Virus record (IMG/VR): IMGVR_UViG_3300007722_000005
Location: 1 to 64,000 of that record
DNA from: a virus
Reading direction: 5' to 3' (one strand)
DNA length: 64,000 nucleotides
A model generated the notes under the pieces. The model was not told where the DNA came from, searched no databases, and saw only the letters and a program-made list of their open reading frames with translations. The translations under genes were made by a program, and so were the position numbers. Of the stretch, positions 8,236 through 38,186 are shown piece after piece (position 1 is the first letter of the stretch; each line of letters begins with the position of its first letter).

Positions 8236-9577
8236 ACGTCCAACGTTTGGTTATTACCCCATTCTCATACACAGTTTGCAGCGCATCCGACTTACCAGGA
8301 ACGAACGGCCCCGAGGTGTAGTTGCCATCAATATCTTTGAACAATGTGACGCGGCCTTTCATAGAGCGCTTACCAGCGTCAGTGACAGGATCTTTGTACA
8401 CATCACGCCACTGGTTGTTTACTTGAATCGCAGAACACTTCATTGCAAATTTCTGAGTGTCGCGGTCAATTTGTTGCAACAGAGCACCACCCATACCAAA
8501 AGCAACGTTGTCGGCACTGAGACCCATTGAAGTGATCTTTTCGAGTATCGATCGAATAGTGTCTTCGTTAATACCATCACCTTGAATAACTCGTACATTG
8601 TTCAGTACTCGGTATCCTTTTGAGTTTGTTTGTGTTCCATATGCATCAGCCAGTAATGCCAGGCAATCGGCGACGACAGTGGTAGGATCACCCGAGTCTG
8701 GACGAATGACAACCGTAGCGCCAGAATCGATAACTTCCTGCTTCAGAGTGCGTCCCCAGTGATTCTCAACCGCTTGATAGATGTTGTAGCTATCAGATAC
8801 AACAGCAAGAACGCTACCAGGCTTTGCAAATTGCTGCAGCATGTTACGATACGCTTGTACTTCGTTCTCACGACCCCACGAAGTAATTGTGCTGTGTTCT
8901 GCTGCAGGAATACTGAACGACGGCTTCTTTGCTCCGTAATATTTTGAAGCATACAGAGCACCGGTAACGTTGTCTGATCCCATAAACCCAGTAGCAAGGT
9001 GAGCGGAACCACCAATACCTGCCGATTCAAACGAACTAACACCACGTGCACCGAAATCGTGCAGTTTGAAATCGAGTCCCCCTACATTGCCAGTCTTTTC
9101 CAGATACTGTTTGATCAGCCGGCGAATTGACAGACTATTTGTTGCCACGGTTGTTCCATACCACGTTGCTCGGAGAATTGCAGTTTCCAACCATGTAGTT
9201 GCCCACGCAAATTCTTGGTCTGTGTTCTCGACAGTGACCAGCACATTATTAACTGGGACAACAGACCCCTCAGGGGCAGCTCGAATGCGGACTGGCATGA
9301 ACCCGCTGTGCTTGATCAGCATGCGCAGCCAACCTTGTTTGTTGAATGGTTCGCCATGATCATTCCAAAATTCGGCGGCTTCATCAATGTCACGTTTTGT
9401 GAACGGAGTCTGCAGCACATCCTGCAAGTAAATCTGCAGACCGTACATCATTGTCCATGGGTATTTTCCACCTCGAGATTCAACGTACGAAAATACATTC
9501 TGAGTGCCAGGGGGATACTGCAGCCACATTGGCGACTTATAAGAGTCAACGTTCAGTGCTATGTTTTTAATGTTCAT
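8198..9577 (-). CDS. nadV: Nicotinamide phosphoribosyltransferase
   Basis: DSYK, HDFGARG, SIPAAEHS, VSDSY, IRPDSGDP, QGDG motifs. Confidence 0.93.
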   Translation of the reverse strand: MNIKNIALNVDSYKSPMWLQYPPGTQNVFSYVESRGGKYPWTMMYGLQIYLQDVLQTPFTKRDIDEAAEFWNDHGEPFNKQGWLRMLIKHSGFMPVRIRAAPEGSVVPVNNVLVTVENTDQEFAWATTWLETAILRATWYGTTVATNSLSIRRLIKQYLEKTGNVGGLDFKLHDFGARGVSSFESAGIGGSAHLATGFMGSDNVTGALYASKYYGAKKPSFSIPAAEHSTITSWGRENEVQAYRNMLQQFAKPGSVLAVVSDSYNIYQAVENHWGRTLKQEVIDSGATVVIRPDSGDPTTVVADCLALLADAYGTQTNSKGYRVLNNVRVIQGDGINEDTIRSILEKITSMGLSADNVAFGMGGALLQQIDRDTQKFAMKCSAIQVNNQWRDVYKDPVTDAGKRSMKGRVTLFKDIDGNYTSGPFVPGKSDALQTVYENGVITKRWTFGEIRERANSVS

Positions 9578-29777: not shown

Positions 29778-29778
29778 A

Positions 29779-30040
29779 ATTTTAACCTCTCTATAGCCGG
29801 GGTTCTGTTCTATCTGCTAATTCGTCTGTGAGTTTCCTCACCCTCGTCAGGTTTCAATCTGAGTCATAGGTGCACCAACCCGATATCTCGGCGAGTCACG
29901 TCATCGATATCTGTTTGGCTTGCTGCCGCTGATGTCATCGTACAAGCGACTTTCGTCTCCGATGTAGCATTTACAGCTGCTCTTGGCAGCCCCGAACTTC
30001 CTCGACAACAAGTTGCCGCTAGCAGTCGAGAGGTTAAAAT
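29779..30040 (-). ncRNA. rnpB: RNase P RNA, compact form
   Basis: 13-bp terminal P1; P2 CTGCTAG/TTAGCAG; CR-I GAGGAAGTTCGGGGCT; CR-V ACAGAACCCCGGCTATA complementary for P4. Confidence 0.85.
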
Positions 30041-30659: not shown

Positions 30660-30754
30660 TGGTGCCCCCGCCCGGATTCGAACCGAGATCATGCGCCAAT
30701 CTAGCGCCAATGCCGAGGTATAAGCTCGGAGTTTTACCGTTAAACTACAGGGGT
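30660..30754 (-). tRNA. tRNA-Ile(UAU) with long extra arm
   Basis: CCGAG CT TAT AC CTCGG; T-loop TTCGAAT; encoded CCA. Confidence 0.8.
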
Positions 30755-30908: not shown

Positions 30909-30981
30909 TGGCACCCCATGAAGGAATTCAACCTCCGCAATCAAGGGTAGAAACCTCGACGCCGACATCATCGGATGGGGC
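30909..30981 (-). tRNA. Atypical tRNA-Arg(UCU), mini D-arm
   Basis: 7-bp acceptor, CCGA TGATG TCGG D-hairpin, loop TT TCT AC, CCA. Confidence 0.65.
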
Positions 30982-31484
30982 ATTGTTAAAAGTTAAAATC
31001 CTGTTATTTGTACAGCTATAAAAAATATCCTATAGCAACTATAACGAACCACTCTGTCAGTGAAAATTGGTAACACCAACTCGGCAGCTTGAATGCAATA
31101 TATTCAAATATTTTGTCAAACATTTTAGTAGTGCCTTTCGTTTGGATGAAGTCGCCAAAATAACCGGCTCGCTTTCTCTGGCGCTTTGTGGTAAACATCA
31201 AACCAATATTCGTGCACAATGTCTAGCTTCTGGTTCTTCTGCTTGTGCCCGATCCAATAGGGGTTCGAATGGCCACGAGGGCGCCACGTTTTTTCGTGGT
31301 AATTCCTGCGTAGTTGCCTGTCGAGGAATCTATACCCCCACATATCAGACGTTCAGGTGCTTCTTGAGAGATTCGAGCTCGCGCTGTTTCCGAGCAACAT
31401 ACTTCTCATTATCAGGGTAAGCTATTTTGAAACGCTCAAGTGCACCTTTACGACGTTCCTGACGACGAATAAAACTATTCTTGA

Positions 31485-31874
31485 TCATTTTAGCTGGTCC
31501 TCCATCTCATTAAATGCTCGACTAAGTTGTACCGATGCTATCTGAACAAGTTTTGGATCCTTGAATCCAAAATTATCAGGTAGATTTAATGTTATCACGT
31601 GTTTGTCGGCAAGGTCGAATTCGCTCGAAGTTTCCTCGAAATTCTCTTTGTTGACAAACACAACAGCATCGGACCAATGAATCAGAACGTCGTCAGCGTG
31701 GATCAACGCAAATGTTTTTGTTGACCCTGCTGCACGTGTGTTGAAGTTGAATGGATCGTTTGATAGAATCCAAGCGACGGTCGGGGAGCGTAGCAGTCCA
31801 GCTGAGCACACACAAAGAACCTTTAACGAAGTTCCTTGGTGAGAATTAGTAGAATTGTGTTTTCTGTTATTGAT
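31485..31874 (-). CDS. LMW protein-tyrosine-phosphatase-like protein (probable AUC start)
   Basis: VLCVCSAGLLRSPT CX5R loop; SD AAGGAG followed by ATC. Confidence 0.75.
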   Translation of the reverse strand: MNNRKHNSTNSHQGTSLKVLCVCSAGLLRSPTVAWILSNDPFNFNTRAAGSTKTFALIHADDVLIHWSDAVVFVNKENFEETSSEFDLADKHVITLNLPDNFGFKDPKLVQIASVQLSRAFNEMEDQLK

Positions 31875-31968
31875 GATGAACTCCTTTTTGATGAAGGTTT
31901 CGTAACTGTTTGAATATGACTATTATACGTTTTTTTTACAAAAGGTCAACAATTTTAAATTTCAAAAG

Positions 31969-32043
31969 TGGAGCAGGTGGCGGGGATCGAACCCGCGACA
32001 TTCACGTTGGCAACGTGGCATTCTTCCGCTGAACTACACCTGC
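31969..32043 (-). tRNA. tRNA-Gly(GCC)
   Basis: Cloverleaf, U73, CCA. Confidence 0.9.
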
Positions 32044-32077
32044 GTTATTACATTTCTTCGTGTGTGCTTACGCTTGT

Positions 32078-32155
32078 TGGTACCCCCGGTCGGATTCGAA
32101 CCGACACTGTGCAGGTTTTGAATCTGCTGCCTCCTACCAATTGCGCTACGGGGGC
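32078..32155 (-). tRNA. tRNA-Leu(CAA), short variable loop
   Basis: Cloverleaf, CCA. Confidence 0.85.
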
Positions 32156-32167
32156 ATAGTTTTTGAT

Positions 32168-32238
32168 TGGTACCCTGAGTGAGATTCGAACTCACAAAAG
32201 CTGGTTTAGGAAACCTGCTCCCGTCCATTGGTCAGGAT
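32168..32238 (-). tRNA. Atypical tRNA-Arg(CCU), reduced D-arm
   Basis: Loop TT CCT AA; normal T-arm; CCA. Confidence 0.65.
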
Positions 32239-32239
32239 G

Positions 32240-32632
32240 TTATGTATGTATTATTGCTGAGGCGATATACTTCTGTATCTTAGCAGGTACGTTATGTGCT
32301 TTATTCATTACATCGGTCATTGTGAACTCGCTCGTGATTCCTTCTCGTGCGAAACTATATAGCGTTCCACCTGGGTGCTCAGTAGCGAGTATCTTCAACA
32401 TACCGGCATCAGTAGCTGGAGCGTTGACTGCTGTTTTCTTGATCTTTACCGCCTGTGCAATGCCCATTGTATCTCGGAGCATAGACATCACCTCAGAGGG
32501 ATCAGCATTGCGCATTACAGACAACACTTTACCGACGAGGACGTTGATGGCCTTATCTTTTCCAGACTTTACTTGCTCAACGGTCTTTTGATTGTCTGCA
32601 ATGACTTGGGTAATTAGTTCTTCTATTTTCAT
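32240..32632 (-). CDS. Protein with GatB/YqeY C-terminal-like segment
   Basis: VEQVKSGKDKAINVLVGKVL...ADPSEV. Confidence 0.55.
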   Translation of the reverse strand: MKIEELITQVIADNQKTVEQVKSGKDKAINVLVGKVLSVMRNADPSEVMSMLRDTMGIAQAVKIKKTAVNAPATDAGMLKILATEHPGGTLYSFAREGITSEFTMTDVMNKAHNVPAKIQKYIASAIIHT

Positions 32633-32640
32633 ATGAATTT

Positions 32641-32730
32641 TGGCGGAGAGTAGAGTAGTCGAAACCCATTCCATTCCTGGAACCAACTGTTTTCGAGGCA
32701 GTGTCGTCAATCCCTGACAATTTACTCTCC
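32641..32730 (-). tRNA. (8/4) tRNA-Ser(CGA)
   Basis: 8-bp acceptor GGAGAGTA/TACTCTCC, 4-bp T-stem, long variable arm. Confidence 0.8.
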
Positions 32731-32907
32731 ATTAAGTATTTTAGCGTCTTTCTCGCTGAGAGGAGTGCAACAATCTACCTTCAACTCTTCGTATGGAAGC
32801 TTTCTGAATATACGATCCCAACCTTCACGATAAGCATTGGTCGGTTGTTTCGTTTTCAGTTCGTCGCCAGTGATGTCGTTTTTTGATGTCATAATCTATT
32901 TGTGTAG

Positions 32908-32983
32908 TGGTAGTGACCGTGGGAGTCGAACCCACCTATTCTTCCTTATGAGGGAAGCACATAAGCCGCTCTGTCAGGTCACT
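32908..32983 (-). tRNA. tRNA with CAU anticodon (Met or Ile2)
   Basis: CTTCC CT CAT AA GGAAG; CCA. Confidence 0.8.
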
Positions 32984-32988
32984 GCTGT

Positions 32989-33062
32989 TGGTGGTTCCAA
33001 GAGGAATCGGACCTCTATATTCGCCATGTCAAAGCGACACTCTACCATTGAGTTATGGAACC
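32989..33062 (-). tRNA. tRNA-Val(GAC)
   Basis: Cloverleaf, CCA. Confidence 0.8.
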
Positions 33063-33069
33063 TAATTTA

Positions 33070-33145
33070 TGGGGTGATCGACGAGATTCGAACTCGCGCT
33101 ATCTGATTCACAATCAGAGGTGCTGACCTTTACACTACGACCACC
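33070..33145 (-). tRNA. tRNA-His(GUG)
   Basis: G-1:C73, cloverleaf. Confidence 0.9.
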
Positions 33146-33151
33146 ATTGTT

Positions 33152-33224
33152 TGGTAGCGGCCGAGGGTAACGATCCCTCTCCCATCGCAGGTTATGAGCC
33201 TGGAGTCTACCACTAGAAGCCGCA
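33152..33224 (-). tRNA. Atypical tRNA-Met(CAU), mini D-arm, 1:72 mismatch
   Basis: TCTA GTGG TAGA D-hairpin; CAGG CT CAT AA CCTG; CCA. Confidence 0.65.
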
Positions 33225-33246
33225 ATAGTCTTCTTTACTTCAATTC

Positions 33247-33323
33247 TGGTGCGCGGGCAGAGAATCGAACTCTGCAAATCCCACTTGTAAGGAGGGTGGT
33301 GTCACCAGCTACGCTCCCCGCGC
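33247..33323 (-). tRNA. tRNA-Val(UAC)
   Basis: Loop CT TAC AA; CCA. Confidence 0.75.
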
Positions 33324-33379
33324 TTTGCGTGAAGTTATAAGGTTGTCAAGCCAACCTTCTCAAATCATGAGATGAAAAT

Positions 33380-33456
33380 TGGTCGGAGTACAAGGATTCG
33401 AACCTTGGACCCTCTGCTCCCAAAGCAGATGCGCTGCCAGACTGCGCTACACTCCG
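33380..33456 (-). tRNA. tRNA-Pro(UGG)
   Basis: Canonical cloverleaf. Confidence 0.92.
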
Positions 33457-33461
33457 AAACT

Positions 33462-33535
33462 TGGTGCCCCTTGACGGAATCGAACCGCCGTAAGCTGCTT
33501 ACAAAACAGCCGTAATACCATTATACTAAAGGGGC
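33462..33535 (-). tRNA. tRNA-Thr(UGU)
   Basis: Canonical cloverleaf. Confidence 0.9.
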
Positions 33536-33555
33536 AAATTATATTAATTACTTTT

Positions 33556-33590
33556 CTAAGTCAACTACTCGACCGCTGAGCTATCGAGTA
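33556..33590 (-). pseudogene. Remnant 5' half of a tRNA
   Basis: TAGCTCAGCGGTCGAGTA D-arm plus GTTGACT, no 3' half. Confidence 0.45.
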
Positions 33591-33607
33591 ATAATTCTAT
33601 TTATAGT

Positions 33608-33804
33608 CTACGTTTCTTCCATTCCTGACGCTCCAGAGAGGCTTACACAATTTGGATCCTCTGCAATTACCGCAACAAACCGCATGTGGATGCTTCGCAA
33701 CGTTGCTGCAATCGAAAGAGCGTCGCTCAAATCGCTGGCAACGTGGCCTTGTGTTACACTATCAAGCGTTGTCCAATATACTTTATATTCAGCTTTGTTC
33801 ATAT
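33608..33804 (-). CDS. Hypothetical protein (start probably MNKAEY)
   Basis: KVYWT...FVAVIAEDPNCV. Confidence 0.5.
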
Positions 33805-34045
33805 GTTTTACTTGTGACACTATCGTTTAAGCCCGCTCAGGCCCGCACCCTCGAGGTATGTTGACCATATTTGCAAGACTCCTATGTAGCTTTCATAGGC
33901 GTAACGCCACAAGTAAAACATTCGGCTCAGTACACCGAGAGGTATGATGAGTATCCTTTATGGTGTAGGGGACGTCCAGGCACATCACCGCGGTACACCA
34001 TTTCATCTTCTTTTGTTGCACTAAGGCGAAGAATCTTCAGAAGGT
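33803..34045 (-). ncRNA. Candidate structured RNA
   Basis: 20-bp helix 33803-33822/33902-33921 with G-U pairs; further hairpins; own promoter upstream. Confidence 0.5.
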
Positions 34046-34119
34046 AACCTTTTCAACAATGTCTATTATACTACCATTTAAAGAATAGTCAACACTTTTC
34101 TTTTTATTGTTAATTCGGC
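34046..34119. repeat. 74-bp direct repeat (copy 1) containing minus-strand promoter TTGACT-16-TATAAT
   Basis: Copy 2 at 35548-35621, one mismatch. Confidence 0.9.
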
Positions 34120-34710
34120 TGTGTACTTCTCTTTAATTCTGTGAAGCTGTCCCGTTGCCCACTCCAAATTCCTGATGTATTGGTGTTGTTCAGAAGTTTG
34201 TTGAACACCAACAACGGTGTTTAACCGTCGGTCAAAAAACTCTTCTGGCATGTTGTCGTGTGTTATTATAGTTCCTCTTGTAGGGAAGAATTGAACATAT
34301 CTGCGCATGAATTCATTCCACTGTTCAATATGTTCAACAGGAGCTGTAAAATTAAATAGTTGAATTTCTGTTGATATCCTGAAACCAAACTGTTTTGCAA
34401 GAAGGAAGCTGAGTCCTGCTTGAACCATATCTTTTTCGACAACGAAAATTTCGTGCCGTGTTGTTTTCATCACCTTTTTGTACCACGCAATTGATTGTGG
34501 GAATCGGCAAAGATGATGGCCATGCAACTTTATAACAGTGTTTCCATTGTTCAAGCGATGAAGTAACCAATATTTTCGAAATACTGATGCAAAATTATCA
34601 TCGTAACGAGGTGCAAACGGCTCATAAATTTTGTTTTGTCGTTTGCACGAATGAAAAATAGCGCTACCATCTGTGCGGCGGTGGCTGTAAATTATTACTG
34701 GGTTTTTCAT
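34078..34710 (-). CDS. Sulfotransferase/P-loop-like hypothetical protein under a late promoter
   Basis: SHRRTDGSA...YEPF; TATAAATA at about 34734-34741. Confidence 0.5.
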   Translation of the reverse strand: MKNPVIIYSHRRTDGSAIFHSCKRQNKIYEPFAPRYDDNFASVFRKYWLLHRLNNGNTVIKLHGHHLCRFPQSIAWYKKVMKTTRHEIFVVEKDMVQAGLSFLLAKQFGFRISTEIQLFNFTAPVEHIEQWNEFMRRYVQFFPTRGTIITHDNMPEEFFDRRLNTVVGVQQTSEQHQYIRNLEWATGQLHRIKEKYTAELTIKRKVLTIL

Positions 34711-34742
34711 AACACATCCTTTTTGAGATGTATTATTTATAA

Positions 34743-34819
34743 TGGTGCGAGTCATGGGAGTCGAACCCACACTGACCAGGTTTTAAATCTGGCGCCTCTT
34801 CCAATTGGGCTACACTCGC
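34743..34819 (-). tRNA. tRNA-Leu(UAA), short variable loop
   Basis: Cloverleaf, CCA. Confidence 0.85.
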
Positions 34820-34825
34820 GAAACT

Positions 34826-34900
34826 TGGAGCCCTGTGACAGATTCGAGCTGTCCTCTGAACTTTACGAAAGTTCTGTGTCGCCGTCTACACTTACGGGGC
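34826..34900 (-). tRNA. tRNA-Thr(CGU)
   Basis: Cloverleaf, CCA. Confidence 0.8.
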
Positions 34901-34906
34901 AAAACT

Positions 34907-34982
34907 TGGTGCGTCCCACAGGAATCGAACCTGTTTCAATGGCTCTTCAAACCACCGCTATGACCACATCAGCTAGAGACGC
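34907..34982 (-). tRNA. tRNA-Phe(GAA)
   Basis: Cloverleaf, CCA. Confidence 0.85.
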
Positions 34983-35018
34983 AAATATCTCCGTTACACT
35001 ATTTGTAGCTATTAAATT

Positions 35019-35092
35019 TGGAGACTCGAGACAGAGTTGAACTGTCATCTTCGGGTTTGCAATCCGAGGCACGGCCGTTATACCACCGAGTC
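35019..35092 (-). tRNA. tRNA-Cys(GCA)
   Basis: Cloverleaf, U73, CCA. Confidence 0.85.
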
Positions 35093-35098
35093 ATTGTT

Positions 35099-35175
35099 TG
35101 GTGCGCGAGGTGGGACTCGAACCCACAGAACCTACCCTCTCAAGATAGTATGTTTACCAATTTCATCACAAGCGC
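35099..35175 (-). tRNA. tRNA-Leu(GAG), short variable loop
   Basis: Cloverleaf, CCA. Confidence 0.85.
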
Positions 35176-35184
35176 GTTGTTAGT

Positions 35185-35264
35185 TGGTGGAGTGAAAGAG
35201 AGTCGAACTCTAAGGCTACTAGTATGAGCGACCGCAAGGTCGCCGCCGCGATCCGAACCACCCC
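35185..35264 (-). ncRNA. Ala-identity tRNA-like RNA resembling an isolated tmRNA tRNA-like domain
   Basis: G3:U70, A73, CCA, T-loop TTCGACT, stemless D region TTCGGATC. Confidence 0.55.
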
Positions 35265-35269
35265 GTATT

Positions 35270-35342
35270 TGGTACCCCATGAAGGAATTTAACCCTCGCA
35301 ACTGAGCTTCGAAGGCTCTGCGCCGACATCATCGGATGGGAT
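35270..35342 (-). tRNA. Atypical tRNA-Arg(UCG), mini D-arm
   Basis: Same CCGATGATGTCGG hairpin as 30909; loop CT TCG AA. Confidence 0.65.
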
Positions 35343-35345
35343 ATT

Positions 35346-35417
35346 TGGCAACGGTGCACGGAGTCAAACCGTGTTGTATTTCCTTCAGAGGGAAAACCAG
35401 CTTCAAGCTTCACCGCA
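35346..35417 (-). tRNA. Atypical tRNA-Gln(CUG), mini D-arm
   Basis: AGCT TGA AGCT hairpin; TTTCC CT CTG AA GGAAA; CCA. Confidence 0.65.
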
Positions 35418-35425
35418 ATTGTTCT

Positions 35426-35502
35426 TGGTGCCCTAGAGGGGACTCGAACCCCTAAAATCTACATTCTAAGTGTAGCACGTATGCCAATTCCGTCACCAGG
35501 GC
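35426..35502 (-). tRNA. tRNA-Leu(UAG), short variable loop
   Basis: Cloverleaf, CCA. Confidence 0.85.
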
Positions 35503-35547
35503 AATATTATTTAGATGTTATTAGTGTTGGTGTTTCCACGTTCACTC

Positions 35548-35621
35548 AACCTTTTCAACAATGTCTATTGTACTACCATTTAAAGAATAGTCAACACTTT
35601 TCTTTTTATTGTTAATTCGGC
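35548..35621. repeat. 74-bp direct repeat (copy 2), internal array promoter
   Basis: Matches 34046-34119. Confidence 0.9.
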
Positions 35622-35642
35622 CTTGCGGCTCTCGCGTTGTAC

Positions 35643-35719
35643 TGGTGGGGGTAGAGGGATTCGAACCCACAATGACCCAGATTCAAAGTCTGGTACGCTT
35701 CCAGTCGCGTGTTACCCCT
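35643..35719 (-). tRNA. tRNA-Gln(UUG)
   Basis: CCAGA CT TTG AA TCTGG; CCA. Confidence 0.8.
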
Positions 35720-35725
35720 ATTGTT

Positions 35726-35799
35726 TGGTACTCCGGGAAGGAATCAAACCTTCGTGGGCCCCTTATCAAGAGGCTATCTTATCATTAGATGACCGGAGC
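35726..35799 (-). tRNA. tRNA-Ile(GAU)
   Basis: Cloverleaf, CCA. Confidence 0.8.
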
Positions 35800-35805
35800 A
35801 TATTT

Positions 35806-35895
35806 TGGCGGAAAGCAGAGCGATCGAAGCCCAAACCCTTTCAGGTTCCAACCGATTAGCAATCGGCGCCGCACTCCATGCGCAATTTACTTTCC
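35806..35895 (-). tRNA. (8/4) tRNA-Ser(GCU)
   Basis: 8-bp acceptor, 4-bp T-stem, long variable arm. Confidence 0.8.
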
Positions 35896-35900
35896 AAATA

Positions 35901-35976
35901 TGGTCTTTCAGGTGAGACTCGAACTCACGAAATCTTCGCCCCAAACGAAGTGGTATAGCCGCTAACCGACTGAAAG
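35901..35976 (-). tRNA. tRNA-Pro(UGG), second copy
   Basis: CTTCG TT TGG GG CGAAG; CCA. Confidence 0.8.
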
Positions 35977-35984
35977 ATATTCAT

Positions 35985-36140
35985 TCCGTGTTTTCTATAG
36001 CACGGAGTATAACTTACCGGAGCCCATATAACCGTCATCAAGTGACTCGGTCTTATGAACTCCGACGTAGATTTTATTATTCACGAGTTAGTGATTTGAT
36101 AGAGGCAATATTTCATGCCTCTATCGATAATAGATCTACT
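35985..36140 (-). ncRNA. Candidate three-domain structured RNA
   Basis: Helices GTAGATCTATTAT/ATAATAAAATCTAC, GATAGAGGCA/TGCCTCTATC, GGAGTTCATA/TATGGGCTCC, TCCGTG/CACGGA. Confidence 0.5.
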
Positions 36141-36145
36141 ATGTG

Positions 36146-36217
36146 CTCCATCTCCTGGGATCGAACCAGGGACCTAGCGATTAACAGTCGCTTGCACTAC
36201 CGCTGTGCTAAGATGGA
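36146..36217 (-). tRNA. tRNA-Asn(GUU), CCA not encoded
   Basis: Canonical cloverleaf ending G73-CAC. Confidence 0.85.
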
Positions 36218-36223
36218 ATAACT

Positions 36224-36318
36224 TGGCTCCGCAGAGAGGCTTCGAACCTCTATATTGCGCCTTTCGGCCTTTACGTCTCATTAACAGTGAGGTCTCTTAC
36301 CAATTAGAGTACCGCGGA
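36224..36318 (-). tRNA. tRNA-Asn(GUU) with long extra arm
   Basis: Loop CT GTT AA; about 24-nt variable region with GCC GAAA GGC; CCA. Confidence 0.75.
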
Positions 36319-36369
36319 ATAAATCTTTATAATTCATATATCTCGTTGGAAATACATCAATTATAACGA

Positions 36370-36448
36370 TGGTGGGAGCGCCGGGATTCGAACCCGAATC
36401 TATCAGATTAAAAGTCTGTTGTGTTAAATCCGTTGACACCACACTCCC
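36370..36448 (-). tRNA. tRNA-Lys(UUU)
   Basis: Cloverleaf, CCA. Confidence 0.85.
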
Positions 36449-36518
36449 ATTTGTTTACTACGTTTACCATCTTTCGATTTTCGTTTCATATCAAGATCCT
36501 TTTTTGATAAATATTAAC

Positions 36519-36677
36519 ATGCAAAAACTACAAAATTTTAAAGCCTTCTTTCAGCGCAATAAAAAGCAGGCTGAAGCCGAACCCCACACTGGCCCCGATC
36601 GTCGGAAAGGACCACGTCGCACTGTGACGAAGATTAAAACAAACTATACCGCGTGGCATGATCGCCGTGCTGCATAA
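36519..36677 (+). CDS. Small basic protein antisense to the tRNA array
   Basis: ATAAATA late-like promoter just upstream of ATG; MQKLQNFKAFF N-terminus. Confidence 0.45.
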   Translation: MQKLQNFKAFFQRNKKQAEAEPHTGPDRRKGPRRTVTKIKTNYTAWHDRRAA

Positions 36678-36680
36678 TGC

Positions 36681-36761
36681 CAAGAGTGTCCTAGGCCACT
36701 AGACGATCTCGCACACGCCAGTAGCGTGGGTCGAGTGGGATTTGAACCCACGTCTCTCTTG
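36681..36761 (-). ncRNA. Circularly permuted tRNA-like RNA (YrlA-like module) A
   Basis: Order T-arm, closed acceptor-like hairpin, D-arm; closing stem CAAGAG/CTCTTG. Confidence 0.65.
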
Positions 36762-36764
36762 TTC

Positions 36765-36840
36765 TGGCGCCGAGGACGGGGATTGAACCCGCCTGAGAAT
36801 GATCGACAGTCATCCTGTATCCCCAGATAGCTACCTCGGC
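36765..36840 (-). tRNA. tRNA-Asp(GUC), atypical D-arm
   Basis: Loop CT GTC GA; G73; CCA. Confidence 0.7.
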
Positions 36841-36871
36841 AAATATGGAGTTGCGTAAACGCAACATTGTT

Positions 36872-36999
36872 TGGGACGCGATGGTGAGGTTTTCACTCAC
36901 GACGATTTACAAGATCGCTATCAGCTTTACCCCTCATGGTTGTAACCCCACTACTCATAAAGCATTCCTGTGGACTCGGTCACCACAGCTTCACCGCGT
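36872..36999 (-). ncRNA. Oversized (128 nt) CCA-ending tRNA-like RNA
   Basis: 8-bp acceptor ACGCGGTG/CATCGCGT, T-like arm GTGAG/CTCAC, three internal arms. Confidence 0.65.
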
Positions 37000-37000
37000 T

Positions 37001-37074
37001 TGGAGCACCTGCGCGGATTCGAACCGCGTTCAATAGTTTGGAAAACTATGTCCTCTCCCAGGAGCGACAGATGC
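37001..37074 (-). tRNA. tRNA-Gly(UCC), atypical D-arm
   Basis: ATAGT TT TCC AA ACTAT; CCA. Confidence 0.75.
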
Positions 37075-37108
37075 ATTAGTTGAATGTCGACTATTTATAA
37101 TATTGTTT

Positions 37109-37183
37109 TGGCGGCCCTGCACGGAATCGAACCGCGTTGGCTGGTTTTGGAGACCAGTGCATCACCTTTCATGCTTCAGGGAC
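37109..37183 (-). tRNA. tRNA-Trp(CCA)
   Basis: CTGGT CT CCA AA ACCAG; G73; CCA. Confidence 0.85.
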
Positions 37184-37194
37184 ATAATTTAATT

Positions 37195-37283
37195 TGAGCT
37201 AAGACAAAAAGGACTCGAACCTTCGCTTTCGCCAGAACCAGTTGTGCACCTACGTCTATAAACGTTTCCACAACCTTCTCAGC
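37195..37283 (-). ncRNA. T-arm-containing tRNA-like RNA without CCA
   Basis: GCTGAGA/TCTTAGC closing stem; GAAGG TTCGAGT CCTTT; long irregular hairpin. Confidence 0.45.
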
Positions 37284-37351
37284 AACATGCAAACCCTACA
37301 TTATATCAAATTCACACAACAATTATAGTTGCAAGTGTGAACCTCAAAACT

Positions 37352-37435
37352 TGGTGGTTGTGGTAGGATTCGAACCTACTCAGCTAGTGGGCCACTGATT
37401 TACAGTCAGCTTATCTCTCCAAGGAATGCACAACC
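37352..37435 (-). tRNA. tRNA-Tyr(GUA)
   Basis: Loop CT GTA AA, long variable arm, CCA. Confidence 0.8.
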
Positions 37436-37452
37436 ATTGTAATACGAAATCT

Positions 37453-37526
37453 TGGTGGTTCTAGAAGGTAACGATCCTTCGTCGCACGATTATCAGTCGT
37501 GTGCTCTACCTTTGAGCTACAGAACC
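37453..37526 (-). tRNA. tRNA-Ile(GAU), second copy
   Basis: Cloverleaf, CCA. Confidence 0.85.
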
Positions 37527-37532
37527 TAAAAG

Positions 37533-37603
37533 GCGGGAGTGTCCTACCACTATACGATTACCCTCACGAGGGTAAGTGGAAATCGAATCCACGTCTCTTT
37601 CTT
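37533..37603 (-). ncRNA. Circularly permuted tRNA-like RNA (YrlA-like module) B
   Basis: GTGGA TTCGATT TCCAC, TTACCCT CGTG AGGGTAA, TCGTATAGTGGTAGGACA. Confidence 0.6.
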
Positions 37604-37607
37604 TACT

Positions 37608-37682
37608 TGGCGGTCCCAAGGGGTAACGATCCCCTTCTTCGACAGTGACAGTGTCGTGTGCGTCCATGAACACTTTGGAACC
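37608..37682 (-). tRNA. tRNA-Asp(GUC)
   Basis: Cloverleaf, CCA. Confidence 0.85.
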
Positions 37683-37694
37683 GAATGCAATAAC

Positions 37695-37786
37695 TGGCGG
37701 AGAGCAGAGGAGTCGAACCCCATCCCCTTTCGGGGAACCTAGTTTTCAAGGCTAGTCGACACACCAACGCGTCTGCATTACTCTCC
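37695..37786 (-). tRNA. (8/4) tRNA-Ser(UGA)
   Basis: 8-bp acceptor, 4-bp T-stem, long variable arm. Confidence 0.8.
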
Positions 37787-37794
37787 ATTAATAC

Positions 37795-37869
37795 TGGTGC
37801 ACCCGAGGAGAATCGAACTCCCTTTCGCAGATTGAAAGTCTGCTGTCCTAACCGGTAGACGACGGATGC
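37795..37869 (-). tRNA. tRNA-Glu(UUC)
   Basis: Cloverleaf, CCA. Confidence 0.9.
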
Positions 37870-37950
37870 ATAATTCGCAGGCGTATTCCGGAGCAGCTCA
37901 CGCAAGGTGAGTGCCCATTGAGTCATCAACTCAACTTACGCCATTGATCT

Positions 37951-38025
37951 TGGTGGGCCCTGTGGGATTTTAACCCACATCGTCTCGGGTAAGAGCCGAG
38001 TGTAATAACGTTATACGAAAGACCC
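37951..38025 (-). tRNA. tRNA-Lys(CUU)
   Basis: Cloverleaf, CCA. Confidence 0.8.
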
Positions 38026-38031
38026 ATAATT

Positions 38032-38105
38032 TGGAGCGGGATAGGAGAATCGAACTCCTTTAACTAGTTTGGAAGACTAGGACACAACCAATATGCCAAT
38101 CCCGC
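38032..38105 (-). tRNA. tRNA-Gly(UCC), second copy
   Basis: Cloverleaf, CCA. Confidence 0.85.
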
Positions 38106-38111
38106 GTTGTT

Positions 38112-38186
38112 TGGTGGAGGCCGAGGAAATCGAATCCTTCTAGTCAGAATCCTTGCAAAGGATACCCGTAACCCATTACTGCCCCC
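38112..38186 (-). tRNA. Atypical tRNA-Ala(UGC), mini D-arm
   Basis: G3:U70; GTAA TGGG TTAC hairpin; loop TT TGC AA; CCA. Confidence 0.7.

Follow-up and report, generated by a model that had tools for sequence, protein, structure and literature searches.

Six compact tRNA genes in a phage tRNA array

The DNA analysed here (the window) covers the first 64 kb of IMG/VR virus record IMGVR_UViG_3300007722_000005, which is 92 kb long and comes from a T4-like freshwater phage. It carries a tRNA array of roughly 41 genes, which occupies the minus strand between the genes for gp41 and the primase (38186 to 30660). A preliminary description, made from the sequence alone, had singled out six array members with a short D hairpin, and all six were confirmed on the minus strand: tRNA-Arg(UCU) (73 nt, 30909-30981), tRNA-Arg(CCU) (71 nt, 32168-32238), tRNA-Met(CAU) (73 nt, 33152-33224), tRNA-Arg(UCG) (73 nt, 35270-35342), tRNA-Gln(CUG) (72 nt, 35346-35417) and tRNA-Ala(UGC) (75 nt, 38112-38186). 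Judging from sequence and comparative evidence, these genes probably specify functional tRNAs that take part in decoding, with a D-arm and core remodelled into compact forms.

The six genes share with canonical class I tRNAs (RF00005) the acceptor stem, anticodon arm, T arm, CCA end and identity elements, and differ from them in an 8-9 connector that is missing or reduced and in a 6-bp anticodon stem. Each ends in N-CCA followed by an A-rich spacer, as do its neighbours, with 3-8 nt to the next gene. All have a 7-bp acceptor stem with at most one mismatch, a 5-bp T stem closed by a 7-nt loop, and a 7-nt anticodon loop of the form Y32-U33-NNN-A37, with U33 and a purine at position 37. The anticodon loop, T-arm and CCA are thus kept in all six, as initially described, though four of the T loops are altered (UUGAAUU, UUAAAUU, UUUGACU and AUCGUUA). 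None of the six has the canonical combination of a two-nucleotide connector, a D stem of 3-4 bp and a G18G19-containing D loop of 7-11 nt. The stretch from the acceptor to the 5-bp anticodon stem measures 14-16 nt, versus 18-22 nt in the other array members; the two ranges are disjoint, and the compact D region falls 2-6 nt below the shortest canonical member of the same array. In our best models the connector is absent from Arg(UCU), Arg(UCG), Met, Ala and Arg(CCU), so that the hairpin abuts the acceptor stem as had been proposed; Gln departs from that proposal with a connector of 1 nt, and ViennaRNA and ARAGORN also give 1-nt registers for some of the six. D loops are of 3-4 nt, or 7 nt in Arg(CCU), and variable regions of 5-8 nt. 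A standard 26:44 pair occurs in five of the six compact tRNAs and in only 5/31 canonical members (Fisher p = 0.003), and the overall integrity of the stems is about equal to that of the other array members.

The six do not constitute the single family that was first envisaged, because they follow at least three unrelated designs: Met plus Ala, the three Arg tRNAs, and Gln. Met and Ala both have a 4-bp D stem with a GG-containing 4-nt loop that starts right after position 7, a 26:44 pair that yields a 6-bp anticodon stem, a pyrimidine×pyrimidine mismatch at 27:43, and a long variable region of 7-8 nt. In Ala, the acceptor GGGGGCA/GGCCUCC includes G3:U70 and is followed by A73 and CCA; the D hairpin GUAA-UGGG-UUAC stands directly after A7 and is followed by GG, the mismatch of the anticodon stem is U×U, the variable stretch is laid out with 6 nt, and the T stem contains one bulged A. 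Met has a U1×U72 mismatch, A73, CCA, the D hairpin UCUA-GUGG-UAGA adjoining the acceptor, C×C at 27:43 in its 6-bp anticodon stem, a variable region of 7 nt, and the T loop AUCGUUA.

Among the Arg tRNAs, Arg(UCU) and Arg(UCG) have the same D hairpin, CCGAU-GAU-GUCGG, adjoining the acceptor and with no GG in its loop. Arg(UCU) combines it with a 6-bp anticodon stem, the T loop UUGAAUU, G73 and CCA, and Arg(UCG) with A×A at 27:43, C26-G44, the T loop UUAAAUU, A73 and CCA. Arg(CCU) has the D region CCAAUGGACGGGAG, in which a 2-bp stem adjoining the acceptor closes the loop AAUGGAC (containing UGG), together with A×A at 28:42, a canonical T arm, A73 and CCA; its anticodon helix is extendable to 7-10 bp. 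In all three Arg tRNAs the variable region is able to pair with the 3' part of the D region, and the modelled anticodon helix may thereby reach 9-10 bp, although its registers vary between programmes and show no covariation. Finally, Gln has U1×U72, G73, CCA, the single connector nucleotide A8, the D hairpin AGCU-UGA-AGCU, a 5-bp anticodon stem, a normal variable loop and the T loop UUUGACU. Its weak 1:72 pair and G73 are as in the canonical Gln(UUG) of the same array.

Detection and folding of the compact tRNAs

Neither standard ARAGORN nor the Rfam tRNA model called any of the six genes. With RF00005 (gathering score 29 bits) none was reported even at E values up to 10, and Ala was matched in the Rfam scan only as a tmRNA-like end, at 16.9 bits. 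The mitochondrial mode of ARAGORN found five of the six in place and folded all of them when given singly; outside the array it returned only matches of 55-69 nt without CCA. We also used a custom descriptor, defined by a 0-1-nt connector and a 3-5-bp stem with a 3-5-nt loop, the other arms being intact. On both strands of the window it gave four matches, all of which are candidates followed by CCA. Across 1.79 Mb of DNA from related phages, the same descriptor produced 37 matches versus 29 in reversed controls, which is noise level; at that background, about 1.3 matches would be expected in the window, or about 0.02 if CCA is also required. The minimum free energy (MFE) structure calculated with ViennaRNA is a four-arm fold with a small D hairpin for five of the six.

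The Ala(UGC) tRNA belongs to a family found in viral contigs

Among gp41-anchored loci from IMG/VR and metagenomes, the best gp41 match showed only 63% identity, and the few tRNA arrays in these loci are situated elsewhere and are canonical. Because the phage has no close relative there, we turned to tRNA arrays of unrelated phages, collected by means of a generic pattern for a T arm plus CCA, and applied the descriptor to these. The Ala gene proved to have a clear homologue at L195:2089-2163, and a pattern built from these two Ala genes occurs in at least 118 IMG/VR viral contigs. All members are of 75 nt, with 68 distinct sequences among the matches listed; family sizes from such collection scans are lower bounds. 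In 185,579 species genomes the pattern was present in only eight contigs of metagenome-assembled genomes, seven of which have it within dense tRNA clusters, and it had no occurrence in isolate phage records. The Ala family is large and almost purely viral.

An alignment of 69 family sequences, among the matches listed, indicates that the compact fold is maintained. In it, 97.8% of the cells are paired and 13 of the 21 pairs vary on both sides; the covariation score is 0.436, versus 0.123 for shuffled alignments (0/500 reach the observed value) and at most 0.095 with slid partners. The D stem covaries at 9:18 (CG in 40 sequences, UA in 29) and at 11:16 (GC, AU, CG). All six pairs of the anticodon stem covary, including the extra 26:44 (UA, CG, GC, AU, GU), and U×U occurs at 28:42 in 28/69 sequences. 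The T stem consists of 47:64 (GC in 59, CG in 10), a bulged nucleotide and four further pairs, and the apparent A×C mismatch in the Ala T stem is this conserved bulge. A drawing of Ala as an 8/4 molecule was rejected, since the covarying partner of column 64 is column 47 rather than the invariant G8. A strong association between columns 12 and 59 tracks two clades of the family and was not counted as a tertiary pair.

The anticodon loop of the family is nearly invariant. The anticodon is UGC in 66 of the 69 sequences and GGC in the other three, so that it is always an alanine anticodon. The window gene itself shows the alanine identity marks G3:U70 and A73 together with an alanine anticodon; in its relatives, G3:U70 was fixed by the search pattern. 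In 84 of 117 family loci, among the matches listed, there is no other Ala tRNA within the stretch fetched. Standard ARAGORN calls the family gene in 42 of these 117 loci, thus missing about two thirds, and the Rfam tRNA model left it unreported in all five family loci scanned (E up to 0.001).

Relatives of the Met, Arg and Gln designs

A pattern search with Met retrieved one homologue of 73 nt and 88% identity, at L398:6058-6130. Eight of the nine differences between the two genes lie in stems and none breaks a pair; in each of the D, anticodon and T stems, one pair is changed on both sides in a compensatory way, which makes three such double changes. Both genes keep U1×U72, the pyrimidine×pyrimidine 27:43 mismatch, a 6-nt AUGGGA and the AUCGUUA T loop. 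The window phage and the L398 phage each also have a canonical Met(CAU), and the unpaired 1:72 suggests that the compact Met may be an initiator-type species. L398 also contains a tmRNA, at 9121-9453 (Rfam beta_tmRNA, 110.9 bits; permuted tmRNA, 117.7 bits).

With Arg(CCU), blastn against all fetched loci detected Arg(UCU) genes in L394, L342 and L340. Relatives of this tRNA, from five contigs, always keep A×A at 28:42 and have a D region of 14-15 nt right after the acceptor (CCAAUGGAAUGGGAG or CUG-AUGGAG-CAG). They show G-C/C-G switches at 26:44 and U-A/C-G switches at 31:39, and their T stems are fully compensated. The random decay among relatives that the preliminary description had set against its own proposal is therefore not seen for Ala, Met or Arg(CCU), whose pairs are compensated and whose mismatches are conserved.

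Arg(UCU) and Arg(UCG) are paralogues retargeted to different Arg codon boxes; between them, two double and five single changes preserve pairing and only one pair is lost. Exact 20-mer and degenerate pattern searches for these two genes were empty, as was a pattern search for Gln(CUG), and blastn found no homologue of any of the three among the fetched loci. Neither did blastn of Arg(UCG) plus Gln, Ala, Met and a consensus-like Ala retrieve anything from 50,697 isolate phage records. Other phages with the compact Ala have canonical Arg tRNAs, in keeping with the independence of the designs.

Further compact tRNAs were observed in other loci. Three are Met(CAU) genes with 4-5-bp hairpins and 3-4-nt loops (L170:639-711, L170:797-867 and L262:11628-11699), two of which have the hairpin adjoining the acceptor, the one at L170:639-711 having a 1-nt connector. 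Another, a Gly(GCC) of 71 nt at L238:1813-1883, has one connector nucleotide and an anticodon stem of 6 bp. The T loop AUCGUUA of Met, in which A54 and U58 are swapped, is present in Met, Ile(GAU) and Asp of the window (33152-33224, 37453-37526 and 37608-37682, minus strand) and also in the phage arrays L315, L374, L348 and L351, including Ala(GGC) members of the compact family; the usual arrangement of this loop is U54...A58.

Loss of the elbow pair in five array members

The initial proposal held that the short-hairpin tRNAs often lack G18G19. This applies to three of the six, Arg(UCU), Arg(UCG) and Gln, and does not apply to Ala, Met and Arg(CCU), which retain both GG and C56. GG is missing from the D loop of five array tRNAs in all, these three plus two of normal length: tRNA-Lys(CUU) (37951-38025, minus strand; T loop UUAAAAU) and tRNA-Ile(GAU) (35726-35799, minus strand; T loop UUUGAUU). 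The same five have A, G or U in place of C56, and the other 34 keep both features (5/5 vs 0/34, Fisher p = 1.7e-6). Because the loss of GG coincides with that of C56, the G19:C56 tertiary pair was lost as a unit, which is coherent structural evolution rather than scattered decay. The term elbow-less is accordingly right for only half of the six, and it extends beyond them to Lys(CUU) and Ile(GAU).

Decoding capacity and organization of the array

Standard ARAGORN recognizes 29 genes in the array, plus an amber suppressor at 55844. To these are added Ile(GAU), found with Rfam (at 35729), and Thr(CGU) and Ser(UGA), found with relaxed ARAGORN. A custom scan for the remaining members, based on an acceptor stem, a T arm and NCCA, contributes two further Ser genes of the 8/4 type (8-bp acceptor, 4-bp T stem) and an 80-nt RNA with an alanine-type acceptor. 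None of all these genes is an Arg or Ala tRNA, and there is no canonical Arg or Ala tRNA in the 92-kb record, itself only about half of the genome (CheckV completeness estimate, ~51%; the remaining part is on a 147-kb contig). Within that record, all Arg tRNAs and the only Ala tRNA are thus of the compact type, as had been noticed at the outset.

The array covers all 20 amino acids once the six compact and the three 8/4 Ser tRNAs are counted, and the anticodons UCU, CCU, UCG, CUG and UGC have no canonical duplicate in it. Codon usage gives no decisive signal overall; GCA is the commonest Ala codon, but the commonest Arg codons, CGU and CGC, lack a phage tRNA of their own. All tabulated array members have an encoded CCA except Asn(GUU) at 36145-36217 (minus strand). 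Five strong matches to sigma-70-like promoters on the array strand (38663-38635, 38430-38403, 35594-35567, 34092-34065 and 31949-31922; 10-11 of 12 positions) split the array into several transcription units, and the compact Ala gene is the first after the promoter-like site at 38430-38403.

The gp43 polymerase of the phage (41817-44456) shows ~45% identity to its cyanomyovirus counterparts and lies among genes for UvsX, the gp41 helicase and a split primase. Near-identical DNA was found in three freshwater runs and one estuary run, in which the candidate genes show no informative differences.

An RNase P RNA that lacks most of its specificity domain

Immediately beyond its downstream end, the array is followed by a 260-nt RNase P RNA that resembles the bacterial class A type (29778-30037, minus strand; Rfam RF00010, 63.5 bits, E 1e-18, under the gathering score of 100). 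It has both P4 strands, but a segment of 18 nt takes the place of ~110 nt of the specificity domain (P10-P14). In bacteria, this domain reads the elbow formed by the T and D loops. We found no match to the RNase P RNA of the window in the 50,697 isolate phage records, nor by nhmmer in the fetched loci, which are short, and an Rfam scan of five Ala-family loci, also short, revealed no RNase P RNA.

With CCA written into the genes, and with an RNase P RNA of its own in which the elbow reader is missing, the phage may be able to mature its tRNAs independently of a canonical elbow and of the CCA-adding enzyme. Such independence would account for odd cores being tolerated in this phage. The proposed link between RNase P and tRNA shape is drawn from a single genome.

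Comparison with known tRNAs

Our literature search found no paper on compact-D-arm tRNAs for standard amino acids in phages or bacteria. The nearest known molecules are tRNAPyl, mitochondrial tRNAs and the phage 8/4 Ser/His tRNAs (PMC5389517). The forms of tRNAPyl from Methanomethylophilus alvus, M. barkeri and D. hafniense (PMC7609411) resemble the six in having a 0-nt (M. alvus) or 1-nt connector between acceptor and D stem, a D loop of 4-5 nt, a 6-bp anticodon stem that can be interrupted (by an unpaired A in M. alvus) and 7/5 geometry; in M. barkeri, G18G19 is lost together with UΨC of the T loop. The likeness is closest for Met and Ala, which have the same compact core: the connector is absent, the D hairpin consists of 4 bp and a loop of 4 nt, and the anticodon stem of 6 bp contains one mismatch, the 26:44 pair being proven by covariation for Ala. 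Among the hallmarks of tRNAPyl (a 3-nt variable loop, the anticodon CUA, G73 with G1:C72, and PylRS), however, the variable region and the anticodon set the six apart, because their variable regions are of 5-8 nt and their anticodons are sense anticodons for Ala, Met, Arg and Gln. There is no sequence relationship between the two groups, and the six are encoded in a tRNA array by a phage of bacteria.

Mammalian mt-tRNASer(UCN), or type I (PMC7609411), has a 1-nt connector, a small D loop and a 6-bp anticodon stem, comparable to Gln and to the ARAGORN models of the Arg pair. In type II mitochondrial tRNAs the G19:C56 contact is lost, as in the five array members described above. Mitochondrial tRNAs are nevertheless served by dedicated synthetases, EF-Tu and ribosomes, whereas the phage set, which has full-size T arms, would face the bacterial ribosome. 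The D-armless mitochondrial type (nematode, Ser AGY) does not apply, as five of the six have a 4-5-bp D hairpin; Arg(CCU) comes nearest to it, with a D stem of 2-3 bp that is retained by its relatives.

Like the six, the 8/4 tRNASer and the tRNAHis/allo-tRNAs (Mukai et al., PMC5389517) are non-canonical, occur in phage clusters and escape standard finders. They alter, however, the split between acceptor and T stem (8/4 or 9/3), whereas a 7/5 split fits all six compact tRNAs, in which it is the D-arm and core that are changed. Finally, the engineered D-armless mini HisT (Edelmann et al. 2024, PMC11551756) is accepted by a bacterial synthetase, EF-Tu and the ribosome; unlike the six, which are natural and have a small D hairpin, it is artificial and stable only with a PNPase mutation.

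How the compact tRNAs might work

Acceptor and T helices are the part of a tRNA that is bound by EF-Tu. The organization of the array in transcription units, the encoded CCA, intact acceptor/T helices and normal anticodon loops form the basis for regarding the six as working tRNAs, and the conserved relatives of three designs (Ala, Met and Arg(CCU)) in other phages indicate working RNAs. Host synthetases would charge them through the retained identity marks of acceptor and anticodon. These would be G3:U70 and A73 for Ala; the unpaired 1:72, G73 and CUG for Gln; C35 and A/G73 for Arg; and CAU, perhaps with the initiator-like 1×72, for Met. The 26:44 Watson-Crick pair, and with it the 6-bp anticodon stem, would offset the short D region and restore the length of the anticodon branch, and the longer variable region would help in Met and Ala. 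By these two features the L shape would be kept, as in tRNAPyl and mammalian mt-tRNASer(UCN). There are precedents for both proposals. The M. alvus tRNAPyl, in which the acceptor and D stem adjoin directly and the D loop has 4 nt, adopts an L shape and serves in genetic code expansion (PMC7609411), and E. coli HisRS, EF-Tu and ribosomes accept a D-armless tRNA, PNPase decay being the limiting factor (PMC11551756).

Weighing of alternative explanations

Several observations weigh against the six being working tRNAs. The MFE structure of Ala is not the cloverleaf, and folding yields weak MFE z-scores (-0.3 to -1.8), those of Met and Ala being poor. Four of the six compact tRNAs have an anticodon-stem mismatch. 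Arg(UCU), Arg(UCG) and Gln are without relatives in the collections searched, and the acceptor stem, GGG and CGG of the Ala family were fixed by the search pattern and hence carry no covariation information. ArgRS normally reads A20 of the D loop, and this position is changed in the compact Arg tRNAs. Besides, RnpA, a CCA-adding enzyme and ArgRS were not found in the 92-kb record, and canonical Arg and Ala genes could sit in the missing half of the genome.

Some of these points would be expected if the six were decaying pseudogenes, that is, dead tRNA copies with D-arm deletions in an array that tolerates junk. Such an origin would also fit the other aberrant tRNA-like units of the array and the three apparent mismatches of Ala when it is drawn as a plain 7/5 molecule. 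We nevertheless regard decay as very improbable, in agreement with the preliminary description, which had preferred an alternative fold to pseudogenes. The supposed mismatches recur in the relatives of Ala, Met and Arg(CCU), and it is the true pairs that covary, in Ala across at least 118 contigs; the Met and Arg(CCU) designs recur with compensatory changes. No canonical parent with the anticodon UCU, CCU, UCG, CUG or UGC exists in the array, CCA, U33 and A37 are intact in all six, the loss of GG and that of C56 coincide perfectly, and the stems are about as intact as those of canonical members, of which 8/31 likewise have a mismatch in the anticodon stem. Alternatively, the six might be processed as tRNAs yet serve outside translation, as mimics that decoy or soak up host tRNA nucleases, synthetases or modification enzymes. 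Phage arrays are known to include stable tRNA-like RNAs of unknown function, several of which occur in this array, and there are many anti-phage tRNA nucleases (PMC10264068, PMC11555353, PMC13056530). A role as non-decoding mimics seems quite improbable for molecules that all have a standard 7-nt anticodon loop, retain amino-acid identity marks and fill precisely the gaps of the decoding set (Arg, Ala and CAG-Gln); in the Ala family, moreover, the anticodon switches only to another Ala anticodon.

A different question is why a decoding tRNA should keep such a core. The preliminary description invoked evasion of toxins or nucleases that recognize the elbow. More broadly, compact or elbow-less cores could have been selected, with decoding kept, to escape enzymes that read the D loop, core or elbow. 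The AriB nuclease of PARIS has been modelled contacting U16-U17 of the D loop, and U16C impaired cleavage (PMC12409363), so that a rebuilt D-arm defeating a tRNase is plausible in principle; phage tRNAs are also known to escape through sequence change (PMC10264068). The joint loss of the elbow pair from five tRNAs and the rebuilding of all three Arg isoacceptors would agree with such selection. However, no result obtained here ties these tRNAs to a defence system, toxin or nuclease, and our literature search turned up no elbow-specific antiviral nuclease. Elbow evasion is inapplicable to Ala, Met and Arg(CCU), because the D-loop GG and the T-loop C56 are retained in these three, and relaxed constraint, with an own RNase P and encoded CCA, fits the same data equally without selection. 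Escape is thus a minority hypothesis, and an unlikely one, on why the fold was kept and not on what the genes are. For the six as working tRNAs, both relaxed constraint and resistance to host tRNA-targeting enzymes are possible reasons for keeping the compact forms.

Other unusual features of the array

The three 8/4 tRNA-Ser genes (CGA, GCU and UGA, at 32641-32730, 35806-35895 and 37695-37781, minus strand) are of 87-90 nt, with an 8-bp acceptor and a 4-bp T stem, and all were overlooked by standard ARAGORN. The tRNA-Leu of bacteria have a long variable arm. Here, the four Leu genes called by ARAGORN in the array (CAA, UAA, GAG and UAG, at 32078-32155, 34743-34819, 35099-35175 and 35426-35502, minus strand) are of only 77-78 nt, with a 5-nt variable loop; short Leu tRNAs are present in L195 and L238 too. 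Ile(UAU) and one Asn(GUU) (30660-30754 and 36224-36318, minus strand) are of 95 nt and carry, beyond the anticodon stem, ~24 nt of inserted sequence or an additional arm. The 80-nt RNA with the alanine-type acceptor (35185-35264, minus strand) shows G3:U70 and A73 and has CCA and a normal T arm. In place of an anticodon arm, however, it forms a hairpin of 7 bp closed by 4 nt, and it is incapable of decoding. The amber-suppressor tRNA (CUA; 55844-55918, minus strand) is an ordinary cloverleaf located apart from the array, and TAG is the stop codon of only 9/96 long open reading frames (ORFs) of the record.

ORFs were also noted within the array. In GatB, a domain of the PF02637 type touches the D loop and elbow of tRNA. 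The 130-aa ORF at 32240-32632 (minus strand) contains such a GatB/YqeY C-terminal domain (Pfam PF02637, E 7.5e-11), and its product could be a tRNA-binding helper. The ORF at 34078-34710 is an orphan, for which a homologue search was empty.

Implications

Compact cores are familiar from tRNAPyl and mitochondria, and here they are found on tRNAs for ordinary amino acids that face the bacterial ribosome. Since tRNA finders often overlook such designs, counts of phage tRNAs, and statements on which amino acids are missing from a phage set, are biased. The six also provide natural sequences with which to test the minimal needs of bacterial AlaRS, ArgRS, GlnRS, EF-Tu, RNase P and the ribosome, and compact tRNAs are candidates for orthogonal or nuclease-resistant tRNAs.

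The presence in one phage of compact tRNAs and of an RNase P RNA devoid of its elbow reader offers a testable tie between tRNA shape and the maturing enzyme. A more speculative extension, to which we attach a low probability, is that in large phages an RNase P RNA without specificity domain and encoded CCA have released the tRNAs from the constraints by which all cellular tRNAs stay canonical, so that they could adopt stealth forms, with a compact D-arm or no elbow pair, that host defence nucleases or decay enzymes cannot grip. If this were true, the 75-nt Ala family, in its at least 118 viral contigs, would be a widespread counter-defence tRNA, and the window phage, with every Arg decoder replaced, would be the one furthest along.

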